Shown one piece after another: positions 9,825 through 37,436 of a stretch of 39,240 nt of DNA; the first letter of the stretch is position 1, and every line of letters starts with the position of its first letter. Position numbers and translations under genes: made by a program. This DNA comes from a virus (lineage: Duplodnaviria > Heunggongvirae > Uroviricota > Caudoviricetes). Below the pieces are notes generated by a model that was not told the origin of the DNA, made no database searches, and worked only from the letters and a program-made list of their open reading frames with translations. The DNA lies in IMG/VR virus record IMGVR_UViG_2634166457_000020, positions 1-39,240 of that record; one strand, written 5' to 3'.

Positions 9825-9885
9825 ATCGACGATCTTTTTAGTTATCAATGTTATCAATAAGTTATGTGGATAAACGAGGGTAAAG

Positions 9886-11096: not shown

Positions 11097-11097
11097 T

Positions 11098-12802: not shown

Positions 12803-12819
12803 CATGTCACGAAGGTGTT

Positions 12820-13063: not shown

Positions 13064-13097
13064 GCATGGTACTATTACCACAACGGTAACTATTACC

Positions 13098-15990: not shown

Positions 15991-16025
15991 GATTATACCT
16001 TTAAGGTAATTTGCGGTCATCAAGC

Positions 16026-16212: not shown

Positions 16213-16289
16213 TGGCGTGGCATGCAGGATTCGAACCTGCGACCAACCGCTTAGAAGGCGGTTGCTCTGTCCAACTGAGCTAATGCCAC
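16213..16289 (-). tRNA. tRNA-Arg (anticodon UCU, reads AGA), 77 nt including encoded CCA
   Basis: Manually folded cloverleaf: acceptor GUGGCAU/AUGCCAC, D-stem GCUC/GAGC, anticodon stem ACCGC/GCGGU with loop CUUCUAA, T-stem GCAGG/CCUGC with loop UUCGAAU, discriminator G, CCA. Confidence 0.85.
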
Positions 16290-16716
16290 AACGCTGAGAG
16301 CACTTAGCCTGTTAAGGCACCACACTTTGTCGCGGCTCCATAAATGCTCTCATCGTTGTACCCTCGTCTCTTCCGAGGCGTCACACCGAATCGCCGGGAT
16401 GGTGAATCCCCGTGCGCGGAATAAAACCGCTCGACTTGCACATTCCGGCTACCTGGTTCGTTTGCCCGAGCAAGGGAGGGTGCCCCTTAAACGTATCCAG
16501 ACCGCTATCGTCGCATGTGCCATACGCCGTACTGCTCAAAATAAAAGCTCACTCCACCTGTTCAATTTAACGACAAGCCAGTCAGGTTAGTAACCGGAAT
16601 GAACCCTTTAGTTACCTGAAGGGTAATAATTCGCGCGTTAAATGTCAACTGTCTACGATAAATAAATCATATGTGGTTAAATTGGTAATGATTTAATTGC
16701 GTACGGAGTCATTGAT

Positions 16717-16923
16717 ATGTGCATGGGTAGCTCACCATCAGTGCCTGCAACACCAGAAGTTCAGGCAGCACCACAGGAGCAGGATGCCGCCGTTGTTGAT
16801 GCCCGCGACGAAGAAACTCGTCGCCGTCGCGCTGCTGCTGGTCGTAGTTCTACGCTGCTTACCGGTTCTCAGGGCGACACATCAACCGCTAATACCAGCG
16901 GTAAAACGCTGCTTGGTCAGTAA
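16717..16923 (+). CDS. Small hypothetical protein, 68 aa, first gene of structural operon
   Basis: ATG preceded by CGGAGTCATTGA, the same initiation context as the portal gene. Confidence 0.45.
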   Translation: MCMGSSPSVPATPEVQAAPQEQDAAVVDARDEETRRRRAAAGRSSTLLTGSQGDTSTANTSGKTLLGQ

Positions 16924-16937
16924 CCGGAGTCATTGAA

Positions 16938-18617
16938 ATGGCGGAAACAACTAAAGAGCGATTGAACAAACAGTTCGCACAACTTGAAAGCGAGCGTCAG
17001 TCGTTCGAGCCGCACTGGCGCGAGTTGAGTGATTACATCAACCCGCGTGGTTCCCGCTTTCTGACTTCTGAGGTCAACCGTAACGATCGACGCAATACAC
17101 GCATTATTGATTCGACCGGGACTATGGCGGCGCGCACTCTCGCCAGCGGCATGATGTCAGGCATCACAAGCCCCGCGCGTCCGTGGTTTCGCTTGGCTAC
17201 GCCAGATCCTGAAATGATGGATTATGGCCCTGTTAAGTTGTGGCTTGAGGCGGTGCAGAACCGCATGAACGATATGTTCAATAAGTCGAATCTCTACCAG
17301 TCTCTTCCGCAGTTATACGGAAGCCTCGGCACATACAGCACCGGTGCAATGGCGGTACTGGAGGATGACGAGGACATCATTCGCACAATGCCATTCCCGA
17401 TAGGCAGTTACTACCTGGCTAACTCACCTCGTGGCAGTGTGGACACCTGTTTTCGCAAGTTCTCTATGACTGTTCGTCAGCTTGTTCAGGAGTTCGGGCT
17501 AAATAACGTCAGCGAATCCGTAAAAAGCATGTGGGAAAGCGGCACCTACGAGAAGTGGATTGAAGTGATGCATTCGGTTTACCCGAACATTGACCGCGAT
17601 ACATCGAAGCTGGATAGCAAGAACAAGCCATTCAAATCGGTTTATTACGAGGTTGGTGGCGATAACGACAAGTTGTTGCGTGAGTCCGGATTCGATGAGT
17701 TTCCAATTATGGCTCCGCGCTGGGAAGTTAACGGCGAAGATGTTTATGGATCATCATGCCCGGGTATGCTGGCGCTTGGACCTGTTAAGGCATTGCAGCT
17801 TCTCCAGAAGCGCAAGTCGCAGTTGATTGATAAAGCCACCAATCCGCCGATGGTTGCTCCGACTTCCCTCAAGAATCAGCGCGCCTCCCTTCTTCCTGGC
17901 GACATCACGTATATCGATCAGATTACTGGTCAGGATGGTTTCAGGCCTGCTTATCTGGTTAACCCCAGTACAGCAGATCTGGTAGCAGACATTCAGGACA
18001 CTCGCCAAATCATTAACAGCGCCTACTTTGTCGATCTGTTCATGATGTTGCAGAACATCAATACCCGCTCGATGCCTGTTGAAGCAGTGATCGAAATGAA
18101 AGAAGAAAAGCTTCTGATGTTGGGGCCGGTTCTGGAGCGTCTGAACGACGAATGTCTTAATCCTCTCATTGACCGCGCTTTCTCGATGATGGTGCGTAAA
18201 AACATGCTGCCGCCACCGCCTGACGCGATGGAAGGCATGCCCCTGAAGGTCGAATACATTTCCGTCATGGCTCAGGCGCAGAAGTCTATCGGCCTGTCCA
18301 GTCTGGCGTCCACGGTTAACTTCATTGGTCAACTTGCGCAAGCGAAACCAGAAGCTCTCGACAAACTCAATGTTGATCAGGCGATCGATGCATTCGCTGA
18401 TATGTCCGGAGTGTCTCCAACCGTCATTGTTCCGCAGGAACAGGTTGAGCAGGCTCGCCAGCAACGGGCACAGCAGCAACAGCAGCAACAAATGATGGCG
18501 ATGGGAATGGCGGCGGCACAGGGCGCCAAGACGCTAAGCGAAGCTAAAACTTCGGATCCGAGTGTTTTGTCAGCTATGGCGAATGCAGTTAGTGGTCAGG
18601 GTGGGCAATCACAATGA
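16938..18617 (+). CDS. Portal (head-tail connector) protein, 559 aa
   Basis: Size, position after terminase, N-terminal ERQSFEPHWRELSDYINP and Q-rich C-terminal tail typical of podovirus portal proteins. Confidence 0.8.
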   Translation: MAETTKERLNKQFAQLESERQSFEPHWRELSDYINPRGSRFLTSEVNRNDRRNTRIIDSTGTMAARTLASGMMSGITSPARPWFRLATPDPEMMDYGPVKLWLEAVQNRMNDMFNKSNLYQSLPQLYGSLGTYSTGAMAVLEDDEDIIRTMPFPIGSYYLANSPRGSVDTCFRKFSMTVRQLVQEFGLNNVSESVKSMWESGTYEKWIEVMHSVYPNIDRDTSKLDSKNKPFKSVYYEVGGDNDKLLRESGFDEFPIMAPRWEVNGEDVYGSSCPGMLALGPVKALQLLQKRKSQLIDKATNPPMVAPTSLKNQRASLLPGDITYIDQITGQDGFRPAYLVNPSTADLVADIQDTRQIINSAYFVDLFMMLQNINTRSMPVEAVIEMKEEKLLMLGPVLERLNDECLNPLIDRAFSMMVRKNMLPPPPDAMEGMPLKVEYISVMAQAQKSIGLSSLASTVNFIGQLAQAKPEALDKLNVDQAIDAFADMSGVSPTVIVPQEQVEQARQQRAQQQQQQQMMAMGMAAAQGAKTLSEAKTSDPSVLSAMANAVSGQGGQSQ

Positions 18618-18910
18618 CAGATTACGAAGACGATCAACTGAAAGAAGAAAACGCCCGTAAGCAACGTGACATGGCGCAGCGTGAAATTGATGACATTCGC
18701 TTTGTCATGAGCAGTGAACAGGGGCGTCGCGTTGTCTGGTCGGTGCTGGAGAAAGGCCGTGTGTTTTCCGCTATCTCACCGATGGACGCTATGGCAATGG
18801 CATTTAATGAGGGGCAACGCAATCTGGCGCTGGAACTGTTTCAGCGCGTTATGGCGCATTGCCCTGAACAGTATTTGAAGATGGCCAAAGAGGCCAGTGA
18901 ACAGGAGTGA
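18614..18910 (+). CDS. Hypothetical head-assembly protein, 98 aa
   Basis: ATGA overlap with portal stop; position between portal and scaffold. Confidence 0.45.
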   Translation: MTDYEDDQLKEENARKQRDMAQREIDDIRFVMSSEQGRRVVWSVLEKGRVFSAISPMDAMAMAFNEGQRNLALELFQRVMAHCPEQYLKMAKEASEQE

Positions 18911-18912
18911 TC

Positions 18913-19608
18913 ATGAATTTATTTGAGCGTTTGCTGTATCGCCGTCTTTGCAATGAGCAACCAGTCGATGGTGGAGCAGCTCCGGCTGCGTCAGAACCGT
19001 CAGCGCCTGCAGGTGATAACCCTGCTCCAGTTGGTGATCCATCACAACAAGAAGGTGATAAGCCGCAACCTGTTGCTGATGGCGATAAACCTGCTGATGA
19101 CAAAAAGCCTGAAAGCGATAAGCAGGGTGAAAAAAAGGACGGCGATAAACCGGATGGTGCGCCGGAGAAGTACGAGTTTCAGGCTGCCGAAGGCGTAGAG
19201 CTGGATACAGAAGCGTTAAAGGAATTCGAGCCGGTGGCGCGAGAACTTAACCTGACCAACGAGCAAGCGCAAAAGCTGGTTGATGCTTATCCGAAGATTC
19301 TGGCAGGTGTGCAGCAGCGCCAGGCAGAAGCCTGGCAGAAAACAACCGAGCAGTGGGCTGCTGATGTAAAAGCTGACAAAGAAATCGGTGGCGACAAGTT
19401 AATTTCTAACCTCAGCGCCGCACAGCGTGCGCTTGACCAGTTCGGGACACCTGAGCTCAAAGAATATCTGAACACCACCGGACTGGGTAATCACCCTGAT
19501 CTGGTCAAAACGTTCGTGAAAATCGGAAAGGCGATGTCTGAAGATGGCATGGTCACCGGTGGTAATGAAGGCCAGCGTAGTGCGGCCGAAGTGCTCTATG
19601 GCAAATAA
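18913..19608 (+). CDS. Putative scaffolding protein, about 231 aa
   Basis: Acidic, Pro/Ala-rich N-terminal region and helical C-terminal region, located between portal and major capsid gene. Confidence 0.55.
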   Translation: MNLFERLLYRRLCNEQPVDGGAAPAASEPSAPAGDNPAPVGDPSQQEGDKPQPVADGDKPADDKKPESDKQGEKKDGDKPDGAPEKYEFQAAEGVELDTEALKEFEPVARELNLTNEQAQKLVDAYPKILAGVQQRQAEAWQKTTEQWAADVKADKEIGGDKLISNLSAAQRALDQFGTPELKEYLNTTGLGNHPDLVKTFVKIGKAMSEDGMVTGGNEGQRSAAEVLYGK

Positions 19609-19622
19609 GAGAGGAAATGACA

Positions 19623-20609
19623 ATGGCTGTTAAAGGCTTAACTGCGCTAACGCTGGCTGACTGGGGTAAGCGCGTCGATCCAAACGGGAAAGTCGATAAG
19701 ATTATCGAGCTTCTCGGTCAAACTAACCCGATCCTTCAGGATATGCCTTTTGTCGAAGGGAACCTTCCTACCGGACACCGAACCACCATTCGTTCTGGTT
19801 TACCTTCAGCTACCTGGCGTTTGCTGAACTATGGCGTACAGCCAAGCAAATCAACCACAGTGCAGGTGACCGATTCCGTTGGCATGTTGGAAACCTATGC
19901 TGAAGTCGATAAGTCACTGGCTGATCTGAACGGTAATACCGCCGAATTCCGCCTGTCTGAAGACCGTGCATTTATTGAAGCGATGAATCAGCAGATGGCG
20001 CAGACACTGTTTTATGGTGATTCCAGCGTTAACCCTCAGCAGTTTATGGGACTGTCCTCCCGCTATTCCAGCCTGTCTGCGGGTAATGCTCAGAACATCA
20101 TTGATGCTGGTGGCACGGGTACAGATAACACCTCAATCTGGTTAGTGGTGTGGGGCGAAAACACCGTGCATGGCATCTTCCCGAAAGGGCAGAAGGCTGG
20201 CATCCAGATGGAAGATAAAGGCCAGGTGACACTGGAAGATGCTAATGGCGGCAAGTACGAAGGCTACCGTACCCATTACAAATGGGACAACGGACTTGCT
20301 CTGCGTGACTGGCGTTATGTTGTTCGCATTGCAAACATCGATGTCAGCAATCTTTCAGAACCTTCCTCTGCCGCAAATATTGCGAAGTTGATGGTTAAAG
20401 CACTGCATCGCATTCCAAACCGTGGCATGGGTCGCCCGGTGTTCTACATGAACCGCACTGTAGGCCAGGCTCTTGATCTGCAATCTCTGGAGAAAACATC
20501 TCTGGCGATCAGCGTAAAAGAGACAGAAGGCGAGTGGTGGACTTCATTCCGTGGTGTACCAATCCGTGAAACTGATGCGCTTCTGGAAACAGAAGCCCGC
20601 GTGGTGTAA
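19623..20609 (+). CDS. Major capsid protein, about 328 aa
   Basis: Size and position; strong SD AAGAGAGGA with ATG at 19623; followed by a stem-loop. Confidence 0.7.
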   Translation: MAVKGLTALTLADWGKRVDPNGKVDKIIELLGQTNPILQDMPFVEGNLPTGHRTTIRSGLPSATWRLLNYGVQPSKSTTVQVTDSVGMLETYAEVDKSLADLNGNTAEFRLSEDRAFIEAMNQQMAQTLFYGDSSVNPQQFMGLSSRYSSLSAGNAQNIIDAGGTGTDNTSIWLVVWGENTVHGIFPKGQKAGIQMEDKGQVTLEDANGGKYEGYRTHYKWDNGLALRDWRYVVRIANIDVSNLSEPSSAANIAKLMVKALHRIPNRGMGRPVFYMNRTVGQALDLQSLEKTSLAISVKETEGEWWTSFRGVPIRETDALLETEARVV

Positions 20610-20660
20610 CGCCTGTTATTAACCTGTGGGCCGTAACAGACCCACTAATGGAGAAAGAAG

Positions 20661-21098
20661 ATGATCACCGACAAACTGTTGATGTTCTCCGAAGCTCAGG
20701 CGGTTACGAATACCGCGGCTTCTACTGACGTAATCGATCTCGGTCCAATTGACGGAAAACGTCGTGATATCGGCGTGGGTTACCCGCTTGAGTTTTGGGC
20801 GCTGGTTAACACAGCCGCCGCAGCAAGCGGTGATGCAACTGTAAACATCCAGTTGCAGACGAGTGAGAATAACAGCTCATGGACCACTATTTATGATAGT
20901 GGCGCATTGGCAAAGACCGCCCTGACAGCAGGTAAACGAGTTGTTTCTGCAAAGGTGCCTGCCGGTGTTCAGCGATATCTGCGTGTTAACTACTCCGTCG
21001 CAACTGGCCCACTAACGGCTGGCGAATTCACTGCGGGTATCAGTCTTGATGTTGATGCCAATACGCCGTATCCGATCCGCTCAAAAGTAACTGGTTAA
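20661..21098 (+). CDS. Hypothetical capsid-associated protein (possible decoration protein), 145 aa
   Basis: Position immediately after the capsid gene; strong SD. Confidence 0.45.
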   Translation: MITDKLLMFSEAQAVTNTAASTDVIDLGPIDGKRRDIGVGYPLEFWALVNTAAAASGDATVNIQLQTSENNSSWTTIYDSGALAKTALTAGKRVVSAKVPAGVQRYLRVNYSVATGPLTAGEFTAGISLDVDANTPYPIRSKVTG

Positions 21099-21108
21099 GG
21101 TGATATCG

Positions 21109-21444
21109 ATGTCAGGTGAGAAACCAAGATACCGCGTTCTGCGCCTCTCTCATATCCATAACACTCTGTGGCCGGAGGGGGCAGAAATCGAATACGAAGG
21201 TGAGCCTGGTAGCGCACTGGAACCTGTTAACGATGCAGCCAGACAGGCAAAAGCAAAAGTTGCAGGAAAGGTGTCAATGGCAGCAACCAGCACCAAAATC
21301 ATCAACGATGTGTCAGATGATGGTGAACTGGATAAGCTCCGTGAAGAGTACGAATTGCTCTTTAACGAGAAGCCACACCATAACGCTAAAGCCGAAACGC
21401 TCCGCGAGAAGATCGCAGATAAGCGTAAAGAACTGGGCGTGTAA
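21109..21444 (+). CDS. Hypothetical virion protein, about 111 aa
   Basis: ORF with SD TAAGG; in structural operon. Confidence 0.45.
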   Translation: MSGEKPRYRVLRLSHIHNTLWPEGAEIEYEGEPGSALEPVNDAARQAKAKVAGKVSMAATSTKIINDVSDDGELDKLREEYELLFNEKPHHNAKAETLREKIADKRKELGV

Positions 21445-21461
21445 GCCTCGCGAATCCGACA

Positions 21462-21483
21462 AGGGGCTTCGGCCCCTTTATTG
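21462..21483 (+). terminator. Stable UUCG-tetraloop hairpin (AGGGGC-UUCG-GCCCCU) plus UUUAUU; candidate partial terminator or RNA-stability element inside the structural operon
   Basis: Perfect 6-bp GC-rich stem with UUCG loop and T-rich tail between genes ending 21444 and starting 21495. Confidence 0.5.
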
Positions 21484-21494
21484 CAGGAGTGTAT

Positions 21495-21818
21495 ATGGAA
21501 CTCGTAAACCTCAAAACCGGCACTGACAGCTACCAGGATGAGAGCGGAGAAACCAGAACTCGTGATGAATACCCGTGGGGGCTGTGCATCACTCTTAATA
21601 ACGACACATTGAATAAGCTGAAGGCGCAACCTCCGGGCGTCGGAACAGAAGTGATGATAACTGCAAAGGCTGTTATTCGAGGCCTGTCTGCCAGAGAAAC
21701 TGACGATGGTGTTAATCGCAGCGCCGATCTGCAGATCACTGATATGGCGATCGCTCCTGTTTCCGGGGATGTAGAAAAATCAGCGGCTGAAACTCTGTAC
21801 GGCAATGGGGGTGAGTAA
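21495..21818 (+). CDS. Hypothetical virion protein, about 107 aa
   Basis: ATG at 21495 with AGGAG SD; stop overlaps next start (TAATG). Confidence 0.45.
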   Translation: MELVNLKTGTDSYQDESGETRTRDEYPWGLCITLNNDTLNKLKAQPPGVGTEVMITAKAVIRGLSARETDDGVNRSADLQITDMAIAPVSGDVEKSAAETLYGNGGE

Positions 21819-22423
21819 TGGCCTCTGTAGTAGAGATCTGCAATCGTGCGCTGTCCAATATTGGCAATAGCCGCAGCATTAACAGCCTGACGGAAGCCAG
21901 CAAGGAAGCGGGGGAATGTTCGCTGCACTTTGAGGCCTGCCGTGATGCTGTGCTTTCTGATTTTGACTGGAACTTTGCTACCAAACGCGTGGCGCTTGCA
22001 GATACGAGCAATCCACCGCCTGACTGGGAATATGCGTACCAGTACCCGTCCGATTGTCTGCGCATTACTGAAATTATGCTTCCTGGTGTACGCAATCCAA
22101 CAGCAGCAATGCGCGTTCAGTACGAAGTTGGTGCAGACACCAACGGAACAGGAAAGTTGATCTACACAGACCAGCCGCAGGCATGGCTCAAGTATGTCTC
22201 TCGCGTTTCAGATGTGAACATGTTTGATGCCATTTTTATGGAGGCGTTGGCCTGGCGTCTTGCGGCAGCTATTAACATGGCGCTGACTGGGAATGCAGAC
22301 CTCGGTACGTTTGCCCTCAATATGTACAATCGCGTGATTCTTAGTGCTGGCTCGCATAGCCAGAATGAATCACAGGAACCACAGCCACCGGTTGACGAGT
22401 TTACCATTGCGAGGTTGTCCTGA
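21818..22423 (+). CDS. Tail adaptor/gatekeeper protein (T7 gp11-like), 201 aa
   Basis: Size about 200 aa immediately upstream of an about 820 aa protein, matching the T7 gp11/gp12 arrangement; assignment by position and size. Confidence 0.5.
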   Translation: MASVVEICNRALSNIGNSRSINSLTEASKEAGECSLHFEACRDAVLSDFDWNFATKRVALADTSNPPPDWEYAYQYPSDCLRITEIMLPGVRNPTAAMRVQYEVGADTNGTGKLIYTDQPQAWLKYVSRVSDVNMFDAIFMEALAWRLAAAINMALTGNADLGTFALNMYNRVILSAGSHSQNESQEPQPPVDEFTIARLS

Positions 22424-24894
22424 TGGCTATCAGTTGGATCCAGCCCAGCTTTGCCGGTGGTGAGATTGGACCGTCGTTGTACGGTCGTATCGACATGGCG
22501 AAGTACCAGGTGGCATTGCGCAAGTGCGATAACTTTATCGTGCGGCAGTATGGCGGCGTTGAGAATCGACCTGGTACGCGTTTTGTCGGTGCCGCCAAAT
22601 ACCCAAATCGGAAATGCCGCCTGATCCCGTTCCAGTTCTCGACGGTTCAGACTTATGCTCTGGAGTTCGGACACCAGTACATGCGCGTTATCAAAGATGG
22701 TGCGTTGGTGCTGAACAGCAGCAATGTTATTTATGAAATTGCCACGCCATATACTGAAGCCGATCTGTTCCGAATTAAATTCACGCAAAGCGCAGACGTG
22801 CTTACGCTGGTTCACCCGGCATACCCGCCGAAAGAGTTGCGCCGCTACGCGCATGACAACTGGCAACTGGTTGATGTGGTAACGAAGAACGGGCCATTTG
22901 AAGATATCAATATTGACGAGTCAGTGACGGTTTATGCCAGCGCCAGCACCGGGACAATTACGTTAACGGCAAGCGCCTCTATTTTTGGCGCGGAGCAGGT
23001 AGGCAAATTGTTCTATCTGGAACAGCCTGCAGTGGATTCAGTGCCGGTATGGGAAACCAGTAAGAGTACGTCGATTGGCGATATTCGCCGTGCAGACAGT
23101 AATTACTATCGCGCCGTTACAGCAGGCAAAACAGGCACTTTGCGCCCTTCGCATACAGAAGGCACATCATGGGATGGCTGGGGCGGATCCGGTGATGATG
23201 ATACTGGCATTGAGTGGGAGTATCTGCACAGTGGGTTTGGCATTGCCCGTATCACTGCTGTAAACGGCACTACTGCAACTGCCGAGGTGATTTCCTATAT
23301 CCCTTCGCAGGTCGTTGGCGAGGATAATGCCAGCTATAAATGGGCTAAATATGCCTGGAACAGTGTTAATGGTTATCCTGGCACTGTTGTTTATTATCAA
23401 CAACGTCTTTACTTCGCCGCATCGACTGCGTTCCCTCAGACTATCTGGGCCAGCCGTACCGGGGATTATAAGGATTTTGGCAAAAGCAATCCTACGCAGG
23501 ATGACGACAGAATTATCTACACCTATGCCGGGCGTCAGGTTAATGAGATCCGCCACCTGATTGATGTCGGCTCGCTGGTGGCACTGACTTCCGGAGGTGA
23601 GTACGTCATCACCGGCGACCAGAACAAAGTGTTAACCCCATCATCATTTGCATTCAGCTCTCAGGGATCAAATGGCTCGAGCAATGTCCCACCAATTGCC
23701 GTGGCGAATATTGCTCTGTTCGTCCAGGATAAAGGCAGTGTTGTCCGTGATCTGGCCTACTCATTCGATGTTGACGGCTATCAGGGGAACGACCTGACCA
23801 TCCTTGCCAATCATCTTTTTCAGAAGCACAGCATTGTTGACTGGTGCTTCTCTATTGTCCCTTACTCCAGCGCCTTCTGCATTCGTGATGACGGTAAATT
23901 ACTGGTGATGACCTATTTGCGTGATCAGCAGGTTTTTGCATGGGCACCACAATCCAGTACCGGAAAATATGAAAGCACATGCAGTATCAGCGAAGGAAAT
24001 GAAGATGCGGTGTATTTCGTCATTAACCGAACCGTTAACGGGCAAACAGTGAGATACATCGAGCGACTGTCCAGCCGTTTATTTACCAGCGATGAAGATG
24101 CTTTCTTTGTTGATTCTGGCCTTAGCTATGATGGAAGAAATACGTCTGACAGAACGATGACCATCACTGGTGGTTCTGGCGAATGGGATTACCGCGCGGA
24201 ATATCCAATCAGTGTTTCTGGTGGCGCGTACTTCACCAGTAGTGATGTCGGTGCGCAACTACAGTTCCCTTATACCGGAACTGATCCTGATACTGGCGAT
24301 GAAGTGTCAAAAGAATTACGTTGCGACATTATTTCTGTAACCAGCAATACCGCAGTAGTGGTTCGTGCTAACAGGAACGTCCCGCCATCCCTCAGGAATG
24401 TGGCCACCACGAACTGGCAGATGGCGCGCCGGACATTTGGAGGCCTGTCTCATCTTGAAGGCCAGACCGTAAACATTCTCTCTGATGCGAACGTGGAACC
24501 ACAGAAAGTGGTTTCCGGAGGTGCCGTCACGCTGGAATCTCCGGGGGCTGTAGTGCACATCGGCCTGCCAATAACTGCTGAATTCGAAACACTGGATATC
24601 AACATTAACGGACAGGAAACGCTGCTGGACAAAAAACAGGTGATCCCGTCCGTTACTCTGGTTGTGAATGCCAGTCGCGGCATCTGGGCGACTACGCCCG
24701 GCGGTAAATGGTACGAATATCCACAGCGTGAATTCGAGTTCTATGATGATCCTGTTGATGACGCTACCGGAAAAGTAGAAGTGAAACTGGACAGTAACTG
24801 GGGCAAAAACGGACGTGTAAAAATCCGTCAGCTTGACCCGTTGCCGCTGTCTGTTCTTGCCGTTATTCCTCGCCTTACTGTTGGGGGATTCTGA
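22423..24894 (+). CDS. Tail nozzle/tubular protein (T7 gp12-like), 823 aa
   Basis: Large protein after the adaptor-like gene; translationally coupled. Confidence 0.5.
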   Translation: MAISWIQPSFAGGEIGPSLYGRIDMAKYQVALRKCDNFIVRQYGGVENRPGTRFVGAAKYPNRKCRLIPFQFSTVQTYALEFGHQYMRVIKDGALVLNSSNVIYEIATPYTEADLFRIKFTQSADVLTLVHPAYPPKELRRYAHDNWQLVDVVTKNGPFEDINIDESVTVYASASTGTITLTASASIFGAEQVGKLFYLEQPAVDSVPVWETSKSTSIGDIRRADSNYYRAVTAGKTGTLRPSHTEGTSWDGWGGSGDDDTGIEWEYLHSGFGIARITAVNGTTATAEVISYIPSQVVGEDNASYKWAKYAWNSVNGYPGTVVYYQQRLYFAASTAFPQTIWASRTGDYKDFGKSNPTQDDDRIIYTYAGRQVNEIRHLIDVGSLVALTSGGEYVITGDQNKVLTPSSFAFSSQGSNGSSNVPPIAVANIALFVQDKGSVVRDLAYSFDVDGYQGNDLTILANHLFQKHSIVDWCFSIVPYSSAFCIRDDGKLLVMTYLRDQQVFAWAPQSSTGKYESTCSISEGNEDAVYFVINRTVNGQTVRYIERLSSRLFTSDEDAFFVDSGLSYDGRNTSDRTMTITGGSGEWDYRAEYPISVSGGAYFTSSDVGAQLQFPYTGTDPDTGDEVSKELRCDIISVTSNTAVVVRANRNVPPSLRNVATTNWQMARRTFGGLSHLEGQTVNILSDANVEPQKVVSGGAVTLESPGAVVHIGLPITAEFETLDININGQETLLDKKQVIPSVTLVVNASRGIWATTPGGKWYEYPQREFEFYDDPVDDATGKVEVKLDSNWGKNGRVKIRQLDPLPLSVLAVIPRLTVGGF

Positions 24895-25358
24895 TGATCG
24901 ATGTTCAAATTATTCCCGCTACCGAAGAGCATCTTCAGATGATTTTGCCGGATGTTCGTCAGGCTGATATTGACGAACTGTATGCGGTATCGCTGATGAC
25001 TACCGAAGATGCGCTGCGTGTTGGTCTTCGCACTGCGACTATGGCCTGGTCAGGATTTGCGAACGGAGAACTGGTAACCATGTTTGGCGTATCTCCGGCG
25101 TCAATGATCGGTGGCAATGGTACGCCCTGGCTGGTAGGAACCAGCCGTATTGAAAAATATCAGAAGACATTTCTTCGCCACTGCCGCCCTGTATTGCAGC
25201 AGATGCTGGCAGTTTATCCGCGCCTGGAAAACTACGTCGACGAGCGAAACCATGTTGCCAAAGCATGGCTGCACTGGCTTGGATTCAGGCTTGAAGAAGC
25301 CGCGCCTTATGGTGCTCTTGGTCTTAATTTCCACAGATTTCACATGGAGAGAAAATAA
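24894..25358 (+). CDS. Hypothetical virion protein, 154 aa
   Basis: Translationally coupled ORF in structural operon. Confidence 0.45.
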   Translation: MIDVQIIPATEEHLQMILPDVRQADIDELYAVSLMTTEDALRVGLRTATMAWSGFANGELVTMFGVSPASMIGGNGTPWLVGTSRIEKYQKTFLRHCRPVLQQMLAVYPRLENYVDERNHVAKAWLHWLGFRLEEAAPYGALGLNFHRFHMERK

Positions 25359-25897: not shown

Positions 25898-25909
25898 GGG
25901 GATAATAAG

Positions 25910-30222: not shown

Positions 30223-30227
30223 ATTAA

Positions 30228-32702
30228 ATGAGACAGGAATGTATACAAGCGGTTCAGCAGGCGGCGCAGCGCATGTTAACGGCGCGAGAAATACAGAACA
30301 TTGAAGACCGCATTTATCGAAATATGCGCTCCATTGCTCGTGATGACCCGATGTCGTGGCGACAACTTTCCGAATCAGAGCGGTTGTATCGTGCAGCACA
30401 ATTGGCATCTGAAGAATTACAGCGAGAAGCGGCATTAAAGAAACGTCGTGTGACCCTCACTATAGCCGCACGTCAGAGATTGGATAAATTTATCAATAGC
30501 TATCAAGGGGCTGATGGGAAACTTGGCGCTCTTAACCGTACTATTGCTTTTAATGCAGACGGTAAATCTAATTTCCTCTCTGTTGAATCCAGAACAAAAG
30601 CCACCCGTGATTATGCATTGAGTCAATTGCAGGAGGCATTCGAAGCAGTTGATCCTCGCTTTTTTGGTCTGTTTGAAGATGAAGCGGGCGTACGTGACCT
30701 GGTATATGAAATGCGGGGGCAAAATACTGGCAATGCAAAAGCAAGAAAAGGTGCTAAGGCGTGGAGAGAAGTTACAGAGCTGCTGCGCCGCCGGTTTAAT
30801 GATGCTGGTGGGGACATTGGCTATCTCGAAAACTGGGGGATCCCTCAACATCATTCTATGGAAAAGGTTGGGGCGGTATCAAAGGATAAGTGGGTTAGCG
30901 ATGTTATAGGTAAGCTGGATCGCAAATATTATACCCGAGCCGATGGACAACTGATGAACGATGCCGAGTTGTCTGCATTTCTTGGAGAGGCTTATAACAC
31001 GATCGCTACTGGTGGGCTGAATAAGCTTACTGATACCGGAATGCGAATTTCCGGCGCACGTGCTAACCGTGGTAATGCATCACGACAGATACATTTCAAA
31101 GATGCAGATTCCTATCTCCAATATCAACAACTTTATGGCGATCGCTCTCTATGGGAAATCATGGTCGGTCACCTGGAAGGTATCAGTAAAGATATTGCTC
31201 TGGTGGAAACATATGGCCCAAACCCCGATCATGTTTTCCGCTCCCTTCTTGATCAGGTGAAGGCAGAAACGGCAACAGCTAACCCGAGTAAAACTGGTAG
31301 CGTCGAGCGCCTGGCGAACAACACAGAGAACCTGTACAACTTTATTTCCGGAAAGACACAGCCTGTAGCGAATCCGCACATCGCGAGATGGTCTGACAAT
31401 ATCCGCAACTGGCTGGTTGCCAGCCGACTAGGATCCGCGTTGCTGTCATCGTTTTCTGATCTCGGAACCATGTATCTGTCTGCGAAGGTGTTAAACCTTC
31501 CAATGAACCAGTTATTCCGCAACCAGCTTGAAGCTATGGACCCAACTAACCGTACTGAGCTTGCGCGGGCGCGCCGCGCTGGTCTGGCGATGGAGTCTCT
31601 ACTTGGCAGCGTTAACCGCTGGGCGATGGATAATATGGGGCCTTCTGTGTCTCGTTGGGCGGCAACGGCGGTAATGCGTGCCAGTGGGCTTACAGCATGG
31701 TCAGATGCGCACAAGCGCGCCTATGGCGTAACCATGATGGGAAGCTTGGGAGAAGTAGTGTCACGGACACCAGACCTTCGTAGCCTCGATGACTCTGATT
31801 TTCGTATCCTGAAAAGCAAAGGGATTACTGACATAGACTGGAGCGTATGGAAGCTGGCGCAACAGGAGGACTGGGGGAACGGTAATAATACGATGCTGAC
31901 ACCGGAAAGCATTATGCGTATCCCTGATTCAGCAGTTAAACATCTTGGTGAGCCTGAACGCGTGAAATTTGAGGCAATGCGTAAACTGCTCGGTGCCGTA
32001 ACTGAAGAAGTTGATATGGCTGTTATTACACCTGGAGCACGTGAGCAACTGATAACCGGTTCTGGTATTCAGCGTGGAACATGGAAAGGTGAATTAACGA
32101 GAAGTGTTTTCCTGTTTAAATCGTTCCCTATCTCGGTTGTTATGCGTCACTGGTCACGCGCTATGGGTATGCCGTCTGCTGGTGGGCGTGCGGCATATAT
32201 TGCGACGTTTATTGCCAGTACGACCATTCTTGGCGCTTTGTCGCAGCAACTTAACGACCTTGCGTCTGGTCGTAATCCTCGAGAGATGATAGGAGAAGAT
32301 GCCGCAAAATTCTGGCTTGGTGCTCTACTGAAAGGTGGTGGTCTTGGCCTTTACGGTGACTTTTTATTGTCAGATCACACTAGGTACGGAAGCGGTGCGC
32401 TGGCATCAATGCTTGGTCCGGTAGCCGGTCTGGTTGATGACGTAGTGAAGATAGCTCAGGGCATACCACTAAATGCTGTGGAAGGGAAAAACGAGCAGAC
32501 TGGTGGTGATCTGGTGAAACTTGGGAAAGGGCTGATGCCAGGTGCGAATCTCTGGTACTTGAAGGCAGCTCTTGATCACATGATCTTTAACCAGATGCAG
32601 GAGTATTTTTCACCAGGCTATTTGCGAAAAATGGAACAACGTTCGAAGAAAGAGTTTAACCAGACATACTGGTGGCGACCACAGGATGTCACTCCGCAAT
32701 AA
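30228..32702 (+). CDS. Internal virion/ejection protein, 824 aa
   Basis: Last large gene of the internal-core block before the tailspike. Confidence 0.5.
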   Translation: MRQECIQAVQQAAQRMLTAREIQNIEDRIYRNMRSIARDDPMSWRQLSESERLYRAAQLASEELQREAALKKRRVTLTIAARQRLDKFINSYQGADGKLGALNRTIAFNADGKSNFLSVESRTKATRDYALSQLQEAFEAVDPRFFGLFEDEAGVRDLVYEMRGQNTGNAKARKGAKAWREVTELLRRRFNDAGGDIGYLENWGIPQHHSMEKVGAVSKDKWVSDVIGKLDRKYYTRADGQLMNDAELSAFLGEAYNTIATGGLNKLTDTGMRISGARANRGNASRQIHFKDADSYLQYQQLYGDRSLWEIMVGHLEGISKDIALVETYGPNPDHVFRSLLDQVKAETATANPSKTGSVERLANNTENLYNFISGKTQPVANPHIARWSDNIRNWLVASRLGSALLSSFSDLGTMYLSAKVLNLPMNQLFRNQLEAMDPTNRTELARARRAGLAMESLLGSVNRWAMDNMGPSVSRWAATAVMRASGLTAWSDAHKRAYGVTMMGSLGEVVSRTPDLRSLDDSDFRILKSKGITDIDWSVWKLAQQEDWGNGNNTMLTPESIMRIPDSAVKHLGEPERVKFEAMRKLLGAVTEEVDMAVITPGAREQLITGSGIQRGTWKGELTRSVFLFKSFPISVVMRHWSRAMGMPSAGGRAAYIATFIASTTILGALSQQLNDLASGRNPREMIGEDAAKFWLGALLKGGGLGLYGDFLLSDHTRYGSGALASMLGPVAGLVDDVVKIAQGIPLNAVEGKNEQTGGDLVKLGKGLMPGANLWYLKAALDHMIFNQMQEYFSPGYLRKMEQRSKKEFNQTYWWRPQDVTPQ

Positions 32703-32711
32703 GGATGAGAA

Positions 32712-32852
32712 ATGCTTACTTTTATTCTTGTTGTATTTGCGCTTGTTGCCCTTGGCGTTATGAACCGTAAATGTATCATTGAAGACGGTGAATTTGCTGT
32801 CGCAGTTGTTTTTATATTATCTGGTTTAGCGGGGTACATAGGTTTGTCATAG
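32712..32852 (+). CDS. Small hydrophobic peptide, 46 aa; not in ORF track
   Basis: ATG at 32712 preceded by AAGGATGAG SD; single predicted transmembrane helix; followed by palindrome and terminator. Confidence 0.3.
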   Translation: MLTFILVVFALVALGVMNRKCIIEDGEFAVAVVFILSGLAGYIGLS

Positions 32853-32872
32853 CTTGAGTGTGACATGTCACA

Positions 32873-32897
32873 GGCCGCTTTCGCGGCCTTTAATTTT
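32873..32897 (+). terminator. Rho-independent terminator ending the late structural operon (GGCCGC-TTTC-GCGGCC plus TTTAATTTT)
   Basis: 6-bp GC stem followed by T-rich tract; lies between convergent genes. Confidence 0.65.
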
Positions 32898-33153
32898 ACC
32901 GGATTTGTTTTCGTAATTGTTCGGCACAATAGTCGAGATGCGTTTGCAGATCCCGCATAGACATCTGTGAGTTGGTTACGTAGTTGATCAGTGCAGTCAG
33001 TTCGGCAAGTGGGCCATCGACATTGAATCCATCTTTATCGAGATCCCGGAGTAATTTCATCAAGTGCGATCCCTCCACTAGTGATCTGACGCCTCCAGGT
33101 GTGTGAATCCTTTCGGTAAATCCGTCTTCCAGTGGATAGTGATACTGCTGCAT
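32896..33153 (-). CDS. Hypothetical antisense small protein, about 85 aa (start MQQYHYPLEDGF)
   Basis: Internal Met of ORF 32896..33387 chosen because the upstream part overlaps the tailspike promoter region and the ATG at 33153 has a GGAGAAG SD. Confidence 0.35.
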   Translation of the reverse strand: MQQYHYPLEDGFTERIHTPGGVRSLVEGSHLMKLLRDLDKDGFNVDGPLAELTALINYVTNSQMSMRDLQTHLDYCAEQLRKQIR

Positions 33154-33349
33154 CTTATCTTCTCCATGCAATAACTGTATGAATATACAGTACCAAATAA
33201 TTTGTTTGCTATCCAGCACGTTTTGTAAATCACCTGAAAGGTAATATCTGTTCGTATCGATGATGTTTCTATCCCATATATGGTTTTTAAGGTAATAAAA
33301 TGGCCGGATATGCGGCGCAACGGGTGCTGCGACTATCTGGAGATTTAAC

Positions 33350-36106
33350 ATGACGGTCTCAACCGAAGTTGACCACAACGAATACATTGGTAACGGTGTT
33401 ACAACGACATTCCCTTATACATTCAGGATTTTCCAGAGATCAGATCTGGTAGTACATGTGGTTGACCTTGATGAAAATATCGCTGTGCTGGCGCTTGATA
33501 CTGATTACACAGTTACCGGGGCTGGTGGATACAACGGTGGTAATGTGATATTGACTACGGCACTGGCCAGCGGATACCAGATTTCCATATCGCGAGAACT
33601 CCCGGTTACGCAGGAAACTGATCTGCGCAATCAAGGGAAGTTCTTTGCTGAGGTGCATGAGGATGCATTTGATAAGCTAACGATGTTGATTCAGCAGGTT
33701 AGAAGTTGGTTTAGCCTAGCGCTGCGCAAACCGTCATTCGTGGCAAGCTATTACGATGCTTTAAATAATTACATCAGAAATTTGCGTGATCCACTACATC
33801 CACAGGATGCAGCCACTAAAAACTATGCTGACTCATTAAATGCTGAAAATACATCACATACAGATTTGTTATTTAGTAGAACTTTGCGTACAGCAGAAGG
33901 TATTCCACAATTACCATCTGCAGAGTTCCGCAAAAATAAAATTGTTGGTATGGATAATGACGGTAACCCGATCATGTTGTTACCGGAATCTGGTTCTGCC
34001 TCTGATGTTCTGCTGGAGTTGGCAAAACCAACTGGTGCCAGTTATATCGGTACGAAGTATGGTAGTCTTGATGAGTACATAGACAATACTCCAAGCCTGT
34101 TAGCCACAAAGTATATGGATGAAATTGAGATGGCAGCACTGGAGTCAGGTGACTTGTCAGTAAACCATCAGCCAAAGGTCCAGCAGGTAATGGATGAAGC
34201 CCATAACAGGAAATGCTCAGTGTATTTCCCGCCAGGTACATACTGCTTTGATACCGCTGTTAACGTCTGGTCTTACGTCCGTTCTGTTTGGGGTGACGGT
34301 AGTGCAATTATTACTCGTCGGTATCGCACGTTTTTTGTTGATGGCTCAACGACAGATATTGATCCGGCGCGTGATACACGTAAATTATTCCGATTGTTAA
34401 ATGGGGCATTGGGGTATATATCAGTGCATGGTATTACGTTTGATGGTAATGCCAGATCTATCGAGGTGTCGGAATCCGGTACGAGCGGTACGACAGGAAT
34501 TCCAGACCAAACATATTATCAGGACCTGGAGCCTGGTGGCACCTCTCCTTATGTCCATGGGCCTGATGGTAACATCCCTGTTCATGGGGAAAGCTATTAC
34601 AACCACGCAAAGAAACTGTCTGGAACAGATGTGTATGATTGTGTGTTTCGTGATGCTCCAGGCGGATGTATTGTTGGTAACTTCAGAAATCTTAGGGTCT
34701 CCTCAAACTCATTTTTGGGTTGGTATGATCACGCAATTTACGCAGCAGGAAGTGCTTTCGCTGATCAGGGTAATGGAATTTTGGTTGGTGATATTACGGT
34801 CACTGGGAATACCTTCAGGAACAGAATAAACACTCGTGGTAATGGGGCTGTTAAAGGAAGGTTTGGTTTTGACCGTTATACAGTTACTGGCAATACATTT
34901 GATGTTGTTGATTATTGTATGGCGTTTGATACTGGTCACGGGATGGTCGGAAGTGTTTACGCCATGCAGCCATGGGGGCAGATCACTGTAACTGGTAATA
35001 CATGCACCTGTGATAGTTATTGGATGATGATAGGTAACAACAGAGGTGTTAAGTGGTTTGATAACGGATGGATGTCTGCTATCAATATTTCTAACAACAC
35101 AGTCCAATCTAAGGATAGGATCCTGTTACTTGGAGTTAGCGGCAGTAATGATTATTTGATGGATGCATATCAAGTAAATATATCCAATAACACTTTTTCT
35201 GCACCTAACTTCTTATCGCTTTACACTCATTTAACTAACTGCGATTGGCGCATAGAAAGTAACAACATAACAATTACTAACACAGGGATGATTATAGGTG
35301 TAGACCAGGCTGAGGTTTCAAACTCAGTTCTTAGGCTTACAAATAATATAATGGGACGTGTATTAACGACCTCTACTGGCAATCTTCATCTCAGCAATTT
35401 CGAGCGCGTTATCATGAAAGGTAATGAGATTCGAAATCTGTCTATGAGTTTTGGTAGCTACGTTACTGACCTAACTATTGAAGGAAATGAATTCAGGTAC
35501 TCTTCTGCACTTCCTTCAAAACCATTTGGCTTTATGTACTCATCTGCTGGCAATGGATTCAACAGAATTAAATTATGTAAAAATAAAATCGTGGGTAGTC
35601 CAATAAGATTTTCCGTGAAATGCTCATCTGATTGTGTTCTTGACATGAGTGATAATAGCATTTACGGAATTACTGATTACTTCCTTGAGTTGAATGCAAC
35701 TGGTTACACTCCTAAAACCATGAGGGTTAACAACAATCTGGTGATAGGTGGTGCGCTAATAGCTGATCTTCCTGCTGGAGTATCTCTTGGTAGCACCTCA
35801 AGTTATATGGAGTTGATGAACAACACCTTACGATCAACTTCTCCAGGGACACAGCAGTCATGTACCATTCTGCGTGATGGAGGCGCTCAATCTTGGCTTA
35901 GCCATTATCAAACTATTCGGTGTGTAAAAAACACATTCCGCGATGTCACTAACATATTGAAAATAGATGGCTCTGCTTCTTCTGGGGTTTCTACAACTAA
36001 TAAGTTCTGGTTCGGCGAGAATCAGACATACAATTCAACGTTGACATGTAACTATCCTTCAATAAACAAGTCAAACACAGATGTCACACAGACTTTAAGT
36101 GTATAG
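33350..36106 (+). CDS. Tailspike/tail fiber protein with conserved N-terminal virion-attachment domain and beta-helix-like repeats, 918 aa
   Basis: N-terminal region EYIGNGVTTTFPYTFRIF typical of tail fiber/tailspike anchor domains; repetitive TVTGNTF-type segments suggest a right-handed beta-helix. Confidence 0.8.
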   Translation: MTVSTEVDHNEYIGNGVTTTFPYTFRIFQRSDLVVHVVDLDENIAVLALDTDYTVTGAGGYNGGNVILTTALASGYQISISRELPVTQETDLRNQGKFFAEVHEDAFDKLTMLIQQVRSWFSLALRKPSFVASYYDALNNYIRNLRDPLHPQDAATKNYADSLNAENTSHTDLLFSRTLRTAEGIPQLPSAEFRKNKIVGMDNDGNPIMLLPESGSASDVLLELAKPTGASYIGTKYGSLDEYIDNTPSLLATKYMDEIEMAALESGDLSVNHQPKVQQVMDEAHNRKCSVYFPPGTYCFDTAVNVWSYVRSVWGDGSAIITRRYRTFFVDGSTTDIDPARDTRKLFRLLNGALGYISVHGITFDGNARSIEVSESGTSGTTGIPDQTYYQDLEPGGTSPYVHGPDGNIPVHGESYYNHAKKLSGTDVYDCVFRDAPGGCIVGNFRNLRVSSNSFLGWYDHAIYAAGSAFADQGNGILVGDITVTGNTFRNRINTRGNGAVKGRFGFDRYTVTGNTFDVVDYCMAFDTGHGMVGSVYAMQPWGQITVTGNTCTCDSYWMMIGNNRGVKWFDNGWMSAINISNNTVQSKDRILLLGVSGSNDYLMDAYQVNISNNTFSAPNFLSLYTHLTNCDWRIESNNITITNTGMIIGVDQAEVSNSVLRLTNNIMGRVLTTSTGNLHLSNFERVIMKGNEIRNLSMSFGSYVTDLTIEGNEFRYSSALPSKPFGFMYSSAGNGFNRIKLCKNKIVGSPIRFSVKCSSDCVLDMSDNSIYGITDYFLELNATGYTPKTMRVNNNLVIGGALIADLPAGVSLGSTSSYMELMNNTLRSTSPGTQQSCTILRDGGAQSWLSHYQTIRCVKNTFRDVTNILKIDGSASSGVSTTNKFWFGENQTYNSTLTCNYPSINKSNTDVTQTLSV

Positions 36107-36107
36107 T

Positions 36108-36136
36108 AAAAAGGCGGCAATGCCGCCTTTGTTTTA
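36108..36136. terminator. Bidirectional rho-independent terminator between tailspike (+) and acyltransferase (-): GGCGGC-AAT-GCCGCC flanked by A-run and T-run
   Basis: 6-bp stem 36113-36127 with AAAAA upstream and TTTGTTTTATTTT downstream. Confidence 0.65.
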
Positions 36137-37252
36137 TTTTATCTTGTATCTTTTTTCAATTTTATTATACAGGATGGCGGAAAGTATAATTGCTAATGTT
36201 ATCGCCCCAAACTGCATCAATATAAAATATCTGGCTGATGTTTGCTCTAGGTTGATAAATTTGCTGTAAGAATTGAATGTAATGTTAAGCGATAACTGAT
36301 GTACTAAATACAAACTGTAACTTATAATACCAATATTCGATATGCTTCTTTTAGAAAAAATAGACGGTCTGGATGCGATAAATGCCATGAAAAATACTGA
36401 TGTCGCGCAGAACATTTCGAATTCATATACTTTAAAATCACCAAAAATCGAATATATAAAGAGCAATGGCATTACGATCCACAAAGCATGTTTCAAATAA
36501 TTATTTGCAGGTTGCTTTATGTACGAAGCAATAAATCCTGTCAGGAAGTATGTCCACATTATTTGTTCGTTCTGATATCCAAGATATATGATTATCAGAG
36601 CTAAAGGTATTAAAGATATTCTTAACGGTTTAATAGCAAATGCACAGGCAAGAAATGGAACTGCTGCATAATATTTCCATTCGTAAGGTAACGTCCATGT
36701 AACAATATTAAGACTCCAGTCCCATATTGATCCGACCCTGATCCCACCCCCCCAGAAACCAAACCCATAAACACTACGAATGACTGTCATTACCTCATCA
36801 ATAGTTTTTATTTGCCCGTATCTCTGGAACATGAAAATTGCAAAAACTATTGTGGAAACAACAACGTATGCAGGAAGTAATCTATAAATCCTTTTCTGGA
36901 AAAAAGAGATATCGAAAATTCCCTTTTTTATAGTAGATGAAAATAAAAAACCTGTTAAGCAAAAGAATATGGATACTCCAAACGCACCCATTTTTTCAAA
37001 TGCGTACGCTGGCTGAATATTCATGTATGGTGATTTTAATCCTATAGCGGCAATTACAGTGTATGAGTGGTTAACGAAAACTAATAGACACGCAACTCCA
37101 CGCAAGCCCTCAAGGCTAAGGTCGTTATGGCTGCCAATTGGCGATATGTCTACAAACTTGTTTAGAACATAGCAAACACATACAGCAAATGTTACAAAAG
37201 AAAATGCATATACTGAATTATGTATACTAAGTAAGGGGAGTAAATTATCCAT
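36134..37252 (-). CDS. Acyltransferase family 3 integral membrane protein (probable O-antigen/surface polysaccharide O-acetyltransferase), 372 aa
   Basis: Motif LEGLRGVACLLVFVNH and many transmembrane segments typical of acyltransferase-3 proteins; AT-rich; adjacent to the tailspike. Confidence 0.75.
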   Translation of the reverse strand: MDNLLPLLSIHNSVYAFSFVTFAVCVCYVLNKFVDISPIGSHNDLSLEGLRGVACLLVFVNHSYTVIAAIGLKSPYMNIQPAYAFEKMGAFGVSIFFCLTGFLFSSTIKKGIFDISFFQKRIYRLLPAYVVVSTIVFAIFMFQRYGQIKTIDEVMTVIRSVYGFGFWGGGIRVGSIWDWSLNIVTWTLPYEWKYYAAVPFLACAFAIKPLRISLIPLALIIIYLGYQNEQIMWTYFLTGFIASYIKQPANNYLKHALWIVMPLLFIYSIFGDFKVYEFEMFCATSVFFMAFIASRPSIFSKRSISNIGIISYSLYLVHQLSLNITFNSYSKFINLEQTSARYFILMQFGAITLAIILSAILYNKIEKRYKIK

Positions 37253-37436
37253 TTAATCCTTGGCTCATTATCTTTAGTTTAATAAACAAAATTTTATTGA
37301 TGAATTTCGCAAGTGTATCACCCAAAAGGTAATTTTGGTAGGAGTTATTCTGGGTAATTCAAATCATATGTGGTTTATTGTGTATGATATGATCACCAAC
37401 TAAGGGGGTCTTTATGCACGGTAACAGGTGGTTTTT

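Follow-up and report, generated by a model that had tools for sequence, protein, structure and literature searches.

In phage lambda, a single operator class serves both CI and Cro, and the late genes are expressed through Q antitermination from a single promoter. Phage P1 is organized into many separate transcription units with repressor operators dispersed over the genome, and Lpa acts there at the '-22 box' of the late promoters (PMC10695390). The 39,240-nucleotide stretch of viral DNA analyzed here (the window; IMG/VR record IMGVR_UViG_2634166457_000020) is placed by its sequence in Uetakevirus, among the temperate podophages of the phiV10/epsilon15 type, and resembles both systems. As in lambdoid OR/OL regions, divergent rep and cro-like genes have three operators between them and the leftward early promoter has flanking operators; in contrast to lambda, there are two classes of sites, and the late units each have a promoter and sites of their own. 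The likeness to P1 lies in the many separate units with dispersed operators and, for part of the sites, in a short conserved inverted repeat that is found, at a variable gap and with no -35, a few bases before the -10 at head, packaging, and lysis units. Of the two site classes, one (O) comprises the known operators of the repressor Rep, and the other, which is the subject of this study, is a palindrome of 14–16 bp, here called M. M is a real and conserved regulatory palindrome within a known repressor-operator system. It is not annotated in the epsilon15 GenBank/RefSeq records, and the motif is not mentioned in the papers on phages ZX5 and phiV10.

The initial annotation of the window had reported an exact 15-mer, AAATCATATGTGGTT, upstream of the head and lysis operons. 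Both copies are present on the plus strand, at 16664–16678 and 37361–37375, and their distances to the first genes hold (head ATG at 16717, lysis ATG at 37437). The related cores reported before the nin-like operon and the tailspike gene were also recovered (TATGTGGTT at 9448–9456 and TATATGGTT at 33277–33285), and each of the four copies, reported as next to a TYACC-N5-GGTAA site, lies 32–43 bp downstream of one. By itself the exact 15-mer pair is not beyond chance, since two other exact direct repeats of 15–16 nt and several of 14 nt are found in the window, mostly in coding DNA, and 15-mer matches at up to three mismatches are not enriched in it. The placement and the conservation of the element, however, are beyond chance. 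Nine matches to TATNTGGTT occur in the window, all on the plus strand, and five of them fall in the non-coding 5.8% (binomial P = 7e-5). With a weight matrix built solely from the sites of relatives, the top five distinct hits in the window are five intergenic promoter regions, and four sites score at least 15, against 0.27 in shuffled sequences. The suggested motif search in related phage genomes revealed 19 genomes in which orthologous positions have kept the motif amid diverged intergenic flanks. The similarity of the paralogous copies ends at the motif edges, and the epsilon15 head and lysis copies have only CATATGTGGTT in common; on these grounds the 15-mer identity is a lineage accident over a functional core of 11–14 bp.

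Alignment of the relatives revealed that TATGTGGTT is the right arm and centre of the AT-centred palindrome M, with the consensus (A)AACCATATATGGTT(T). M was defined from the orthologous regions of seven phages, to which BUCT711 and 11 prophages of other Enterobacterales were then added. The palindrome is perfect or nearly so in Tyrion, as AACCATATATGGTT at the lysis unit and PL, in phiv142-3, as AAACCATAAATGGTTT at the lysis unit, and at window position 7474, as AACCAAATCTGGTT. The initial annotation had recognized a cis-regulatory element heading transcription units, and the conservation bears this out, but it had missed the palindromic nature of the element. The copies before the head operon (16664–16679, plus strand, AAATCATATGTGGTTA) and the lysis cassette (37361–37376, plus strand, AAATCATATGTGGTTT) include the 15-mer. 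At the head operon, 17 relatives share an invariant right arm, TATRTGGTTA, and differ in the left arm. The lysis copy of Tyrion and of phiv142-3 is perfectly palindromic, and phiv142-3 and a Klebsiella phage retain M there even though O is absent. Further plus-strand copies precede the tailspike gene (33271–33286, ATCCCATATATGGTTT), where CATATAnGGTT-N5-GGTAATAgAAT is kept in seven genomes, and lie in the spacers of two promoters, that of the nin operon (9442–9457, GTGTCTTATGTGGTTT, left arm degenerate) and the leftward early PL (6314–6329, TATGCGTATCTGGTTT; near-perfect in Tyrion and missing in epsilon15), and between the terminator of the cro-like gene and gene 40 (7473–7488, AAACCAAATCTGGTTG), where the final TT begins the -35 of the replication operon. 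Relatives carry an additional M before the antirepressor gene ant. The element had been proposed to drive middle/late transcription, but it is not specific to such operons, as copies also lie in the PL spacer, ahead of the replication genes, and in relatives ahead of ant. The strong arm of M is on the plus strand throughout and is promoter-proximal at the rightward promoters. OR and the region before terS showed no strong M in the matrix scan and carry two or three O sites in its place.

M is present in all 19 genomes having O-type operators. The 80 IMG/VR loci found via the portal protein are all nearly identical to one another. A scan of IMG/VR for the perfect 14-mer AACCATATATGGTT, in which 80 loci were examined, revealed no other clear multi-copy phage group: a few Uetakevirus loci have the 14-mer at the lysis or gene-40 promoters, and seven other loci with a second, weaker match to the position weight matrix have no O sites and look like chance.

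The TYACC-N5-GGTAA sites are the Rep repressor operators O (ATTACC-N5-GGTAAT), which are already known and separate from M; orthologous 17-mers are annotated as repressor binding sites in the epsilon15 GenBank/RefSeq records. The window has 11 of them against 0.05 expected, and five more, including a third OR site and one before gene 40, appear when one or two mismatches are allowed. They are grouped as three between rep and the cro-like gene, two around PL, two around the nin promoter, and two before terS, with single sites at the head, tailspike, and lysis units and one on a moron promoter. The OR region (7069–7131, sites at 7069, 7086, and 7117) has no strong M, and there is no M at the two adjacent O directly before terS (13075–13107). 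The pairs around PL (6295–6309 and 6357–6371) and the nin promoter (9400–9414 and 9462–9476) are each 62 bp apart, and the centre-to-centre distance is 62 bp (63 in one case) in every relative examined; such a spacing, about six helical turns, agrees with looping by a tetrameric repressor. O sites lie upstream of the head M (16612–16626, TTACCTGAAGGGTAA, whose epsilon15 orthologue is annotated as protein_bind 'repressor') and of the lysis M (37318–37332, TCACCCAAAAGGTAA), and a degenerate O (7454–7468, GCACCTTAAAGGTAA) lies 5 bp upstream of the gene-40 M. The O at 33230–33244 (TCACCTGAAAGGTAA) is situated between the tailspike promoter and a divergent gene (32896–33153, minus strand), and abuts the leftward promoter carrying a canonical LexA (SOS) box (CTGTATGAATATACAG, 33175–33190) just upstream of that gene. 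The gene belongs to phrog_450 and has weak similarity to an anti-repressor C-terminus. The operator is 40 bp beyond the LexA box, which suggests SOS-controlled antirepression similar to that of SPC32H. In SPC32H, the antirepressor is under LexA control, and the LexA-box arrangement of the window matches this logic.

The two classes of sites occur in the same genomes and the same promoter regions, and both are palindromes with an ACC...GGT core. However, in M (AACCA-N4-TGGTT) the ACC and GGT are 6 bp apart instead of the 5 bp in O, the flanks are AA/TT in M and TT/AA in O, and the ATAT centre is conserved in M whereas the O centre is free. Accordingly, M fails the dyad test of O, (A)TTACC-N5-GGTAA(T) with a free centre, which the neighbouring TYACC-N5-GGTAA sites pass. 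The O–M pairs lying within 90 bp of each other in the 19 genomes have centre distances of only 19.5–21.5, 40.5–43.5, and 52.5 bp, that is, 2, 4, or 5 helical turns; many of these pairs are orthologous, so the figures stand for about seven independent promoter classes, and the phasing is suggestive but not proof.

In a strict sigma-70 scan (at least 4/6 matches in each of -35 and -10, A2 and T6 in the -10, and a spacing of 16–18 bp), PL (TTGACA-17-AATTAT, abutting an operator) and PR were called. The scan calls no promoter at the four sites of the initial annotation, in line with its statement that the element does not look like a canonical sigma-70 pair, but weaker conserved hexamers are found at nin, tailspike, and gene 40. 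These weaker hexamers are supported by conservation, those at nin having been read by eye, and the promoters named below are putative. The candidate nin promoter (9434–9462, plus strand) reads TTGATT-17-TTTAAT, with hexamers and 17-bp spacing kept in seven genomes (TTGATT/TTGAAA/TTGATA-17-TTTAAT/TTAAAT/ATAAAT among the relatives); M takes the last nine positions of its spacer, and an O site lies over the start site. At the candidate tailspike promoter (33273–33301, plus strand; CCCATA-17-TAAAAT here and TTCATA-17-TAGAAT in relatives), M lies over the -35, 10 nt upstream of the candidate -10. The candidate promoter of the replication operon (gene 40; 7486–7514, plus strand) is TTGATC-17-CAAAAT, and M is placed just upstream of the -35 and overlaps it. 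The hexamers of gene 40 are kept even in heteroimmune prophages of Proteus, Morganella, and Providencia. The head and lysis promoters have -10-like hexamers alone (TAAATT at 16678 or AATGAT, and TATTGT at 37376 or TATGAT at 37383, respectively), with M immediately or 7–8 nt upstream, and at PL and nin M abuts the candidate -10. M would thus always overlap the core promoter, at differing sub-positions in the spacer between -35 and -10 or on the -35, and it is found on every definable lytic promoter except PR and terS. A single fixed geometry was tried and rejected, as a centre at -19.5, -29.5, or -41.5 fails some promoter in each case. Beside the head promoter, a TTGACA-N11-(AATTAT)-operator layout at 16626–16648 is kept in five genomes, with a spacer too short for a normal promoter.

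The heteroimmune prophages provide a further comparison. Prophages of Proteus, Providencia, and Morganella retain the gene order, with Rep 33–36% and the Cro-like protein 34–43% identical, but the canonical O and M were not found in them, and TAACC-N5-GGTTA palindromes are carried in place of O/M. A second repeated motif, the 8-mer TTGTTTAT, is present in Providencia and Morganella; the Providencia prophage has 11 copies in 21.6 kb against about 0.7 expected, and three copies form a 10-bp tandem array in the rep/cro-like intergenic region (positions 1243–1349 of L098; the Morganella prophage is L102). These motifs occupy the same regulatory regions, including a position over or just after the -10 of the head promoter (-10/+1), and the Providencia and Morganella prophages may be said to use a parallel two-motif regulatory code. 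That such a code changes with the immunity module argues for an immunity-region protein as the reader of M, and against a host factor or unaided RNA polymerase. At the nin promoters of Buttiauxella, Pseudescherichia, and Pantoea, O takes the spacer position that M has in the window.

The immunity region encodes two DNA-binding candidates. The immunity repressor Rep (6429–7013, minus strand) has an N-terminal helix-turn-helix (HTH) and a second HTH_3/LacI-like domain, is a homologue of the tetrameric SPC32H Rep (PDB 5D50, E = 4e-42), and has an N-terminal helix, NLVNRW, that is nearly invariant wherever O is present. The Cro-like homologue of gp39 (7168–7398, plus strand), a 76-aa HTH protein and candidate M-binder, is encoded by the first gene after OR and is followed by the terminator; it is restricted to the same clade as M, and all carriers of M have its recognition helix, TTSHYIQTHL, in nearly invariant form. 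Phylogenetic profiling did not discriminate between the Cro-like protein and Rep, as both are limited to the same clade. Outside this region, the gp49-like regulator (12464–12802, plus strand; phrog_536) is encoded just upstream of terS, a position like that of lpa in P1. It has no similarity to P1 Lpa, and as an M-binder it is unlikely, since a homologue 66% identical to it belongs to a phage with a Q gene and neither M nor O, Pectobacterium phage ZF40. The product of gene 40 (7549–7749) was rejected as a partner because its homologues occur across unrelated Vibrio, Xanthomonas, and Pseudomonas phages and are not specific. No P1 Lpa homologue was found, with nothing better than E = 2 in a tblastn search against the window, and none of the ten open reading frames scanned matched the Q family.

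We tentatively favour the view that M is an auxiliary operator through which either Rep or the Cro-like gp39, both encoded in the immunity region, closes these promoters; both the identity of the binder and the sign of the control are what we infer from the arrangement. A dimeric HTH protein of the immunity region would bind M. The likeliest binder would be the tetrameric Rep, with its second pair of DNA-binding domains on M and cooperating with O at a distance of 2, 4, or 5 turns, and the alternative would be gp39. The binding would occlude RNA polymerase, and the head, tail, lysis, nin, replication, and early-left units would be shut. Five observations argue for such an operator: the variable position of M on the core promoters, its interchangeability with O, its phasing with O, its co-variation with the immunity type, and the lysis promoter of phiv142-3. 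The palindromic form of M, its distribution over the transcription units, and the two HTH-like domains of Rep, homologue of a tetramer, also count in favour. Repressors tolerate a variable offset from the promoter hexamers and core elements do not. In phiv142-3, the lysis promoter is without O and has a perfect M inside GTAACA-17-TATCAT; this counts for repression because a holin/endolysin promoter must be silent in the lysogen. In phage ZX5, which is 98% identical, more than 99.9% of the mRNA for holin and endolysin was lost on overexpression of Rep (PMC9782041), a drop that is compatible with the Rep-operator reading but not specific to it.

Several features weigh against an auxiliary operator. 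With its 6-bp core gap, T/A-swapped flanks, and conserved AT centre, M is unlike a weak O. The head promoter keeps the right arm alone across 17 genomes, which is odd for a symmetric dimer, and the strong arm, always on the plus strand and promoter-proximal, looks like a directional promoter element. M is best where the -35 is worst and weakest or absent where the -35 is consensus, as if substituting for it. In addition, some of the upstream O sites may serve divergent leftward promoters, such as that of the LexA-box gene (33175–33190), which would weaken the O–M cooperation, and well-studied phages place their late genes under positive control (PMC10695390).

The main rival, possible but rather doubtful, has the opposite sign of control: M would replace the missing -35 as a box for positive control, bound by an early phage activator that recruits sigma-70 RNA polymerase. 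The most economical activator would be gp39, whose gene is the sole one between PR and its terminator, and at PL and nin, where the -35 is good, this activator, bound in the spacer, would turn early transcription off. The silence of the strict scan at the four sites, the head and lysis promoters without -35, the inverse relation between the strength of M and that of the -35, and the promoter-proximal, plus-strand strong arm at all rightward promoters are consistent with this. So is the presence of M at every lytic promoter but PR, as the first PR product would fit a general activator, and at the gene-40 and ant promoters M is centred near -40.5/-41.5, the classical class II position. P1 offers a precedent, with scattered C1 operators and 11 late promoters having a conserved 9-bp inverted repeat 4–9 nt before the -10. 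The Lpa-box layout of P1 fits the head and lysis promoters and loosely the tailspike promoter, but not gene 40, where M is over the -35, or PL and nin, which have a good -35; moreover, the P1 box (AAGTTACTT or ATGTGACTT) is unrelated in sequence to M and is late-specific, whereas M is also found at PL, gene 40, and ant and at positions other than about -22. For the promoter or activator element that the initial annotation had proposed, the P1 late promoters are a precedent, but the variable offset of M fits a repressor operator at least equally well. Activation through M is further disfavoured by the lack of a common geometry (M centres at about -19.5, -29.5, and -40.5 from the best-supported -10s), by the lack of an Lpa homologue and the occurrence of the gp49-like homologue in ZF40 without M sites, by O taking the spacer position of M in some relatives, and by the usable hexamers that the tailspike and phiv142-3 lysis promoters already have. 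A bolder form of the idea, somewhat less likely still, is that gp39 is not a Cro but a lytic master switch that recognizes M. If so, the promoters without -35 (replication, head, tail, lysis, and ant) would be turned on and PL and nin turned down from their spacers, and a positive cascade like that of P1/Lpa or phi29 p4 would operate within a lambda-like immunity region. In a variant of the idea, Rep would read the two operator classes, O and M, with its two different HTH domains. The phi29 p4 and Mu Mor/C proteins are dual-function switch proteins, and, if M binds an activator, the likeness would be that the same type of site activates -35-less promoters and represses from the spacer; the sequence and geometry of their sites are unrelated to M, and no homologous protein was identified.

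The remaining explanations dispense with a dedicated phage protein or with function at the DNA level. It is improbable that M is an intrinsic sigma-70 promoter sequence (spacer, -35-proximal, or initiation) inherited via duplication of a promoter cassette. Parts of M do double as hexamers (TGG-TTGATC at the gene-40 -35, TTCATA at the tailspike -35), AATCAT/AACCAT follows (A/G)TGTCA or TTGACA after 17 bp at the head and phiv142-3 lysis promoters, and TGGTT beside a -10 or -35 recurs in the heteroimmune Proteus prophages. However, M occupies differing sub-regions of the promoters and is palindromic where best preserved, the end of paralogous similarity at the motif edges speaks against a recent duplication, in many genomes the essential -11 A is gone from the left arm of the head copy, and the motif disappears along with the immunity type. 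A site for a host protein (IHF, Fis, CRP, or DnaA) is very unlikely. The epsilon15 record has predicted IHF sites near two operators, and by eye the head sequence TGTGGTTAA matches the reverse complement of the DnaA box TGTGNATAA at 8/9 positions; yet, by inspection, M misfits WATCAANNNNTTR (IHF), TGTGA-N6-TCACA, and the Fis pattern, AATCATATGTGGT fails the A/R position and the TTR in the IHF test, the annotated epsilon15 IHF sites are not at M, the other M copies are poor DnaA-box fits, and relatives in Proteus, Morganella, and Providencia are without M though their hosts share the same global regulators. Sigma-32, sigma-54, extended -10, CRP, Fis, IHF, and DnaA were each compared by eye with consensus sequences, and none fits all copies. 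A role of M at the RNA level, in which the late transcripts would carry it as a hairpin in the 5' leader or as an RNase III site, appears equally remote: the predicted RNase III site of epsilon15 (24755–24817) begins inside the lysis M and reaches the start codon, and the leader downstream of M is highly conserved, but the head left arm changes with no compensation in the invariant right arm, every plausible start site at nin, PL, and gene 40 is downstream of M, and there is no Rfam match at M, tRNA-Arg being the sole match in the whole window at the gathering score. A chance repeat without function deserves next to no credence. Exact repeats of 14–16 nt recur in the window, coding DNA included, and the near-matches of the 15-mer are not enriched, but the intergenic concentration (P ~1e-5 to 1e-4), the relatives-only matrix, and above all the conservation in 19 genomes effectively refute it.

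The gene order of the window, as read from its open reading frames and the annotation of relatives, provides the setting of these sites. The head region is about 98% identical to those of Escherichia phages phiv142-3, TL-2011b, and phiV10 and 76–83% identical to those of Enterobacter phage Tyrion and the Salmonella epsilon15/SPN1S group. From the left, the genome comprises the integrase, the leftward early genes, rep, the cro-like gene with its terminator, and gene 40 with the replication genes, followed by the nin-like operon (9480–13032), terS/terL, and leftward morons with a tRNA-Arg. The head-to-tail operon starts at 16717, and after a short divergent region come the tailspike gene (33350), a leftward O-antigen modification gene, and the lysis cassette from 37437. 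The genome thus consists of several terminator-bounded transcription units, each headed by a compact control module.

A number of other sequence features were observed in these units. Within the primosomal/replication gene (7765–8580), four copies of a 24-nt repeat, GAATnnnCCCAAAAACGGGATGTT, lie at 8019–8171, three of them strictly tandem, and resemble origin iterons inside an initiator gene as in lambda O. The sequence TATGTGGATAA (9863–9871), in the short gap before gene 9886–10515, contains a perfect reverse complement of the DnaA box, TGTGGATAA, and is kept in phiv142-3. A second exact 15-mer pair, AGTGTGACATGTCAC (12796–12810 and 32857–32871), includes a perfect palindrome, GTGACATGTCAC; the first of the two copies is found at the gp49-like stop and the second just past the last gene of the structural operon, directly before a terminator hairpin. 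The palindrome is also found at the gp49 junction of phiv142-3, PAT1, and Tyrion and may be a module-junction or recombination sequence. On the minus strand, the best sigma-70 match of the region, ATGACC-17-TATAAT (15992–16020), is overlapped by the operator-like ATACCTTTAAGGTAA (15995–16009) and faces a 198-aa moron (15172–15768, minus strand; phrog_4780) of unassigned function that is missing from phiv142-3. The tRNA-Arg(tct) gene (16213–16289, minus strand) is followed by a GC-rich, partly conserved non-coding stretch (16330–16600) that precedes the head promoter, and the epsilon15 record annotates a predicted RNase III site at the equivalent place. In the lysis leader, a 12-codon mini-ORF, ATGCACGGTAAC...TAA (37414–37452), with the strong Shine-Dalgarno sequence AAGGGGG overlaps, in a different reading frame, the start annotated for the first gene of the cassette (37437). 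Its Shine-Dalgarno sequence and ATG are kept in all seven aligned relatives, and it may be a leader peptide or a translational coupling device for the holin-like gene.

M refines a known regulatory system and does not constitute a new kind of system; it is a useful and fairly ordinary addition to the phage switch. Phages of the phiV10, epsilon15, and SPC32H type serve as reporter and biocontrol phages and as the model for the Rep-Ant antirepression switch, and the timing of their late genes is not described. A second class of sites on nearly every promoter provides a handle for mutation, for the DNA used in binding assays, and for the choice of promoters for reporter insertion. Through M, it could be seen whether the late genes of these phages answer to direct repression alone or to a further activator.

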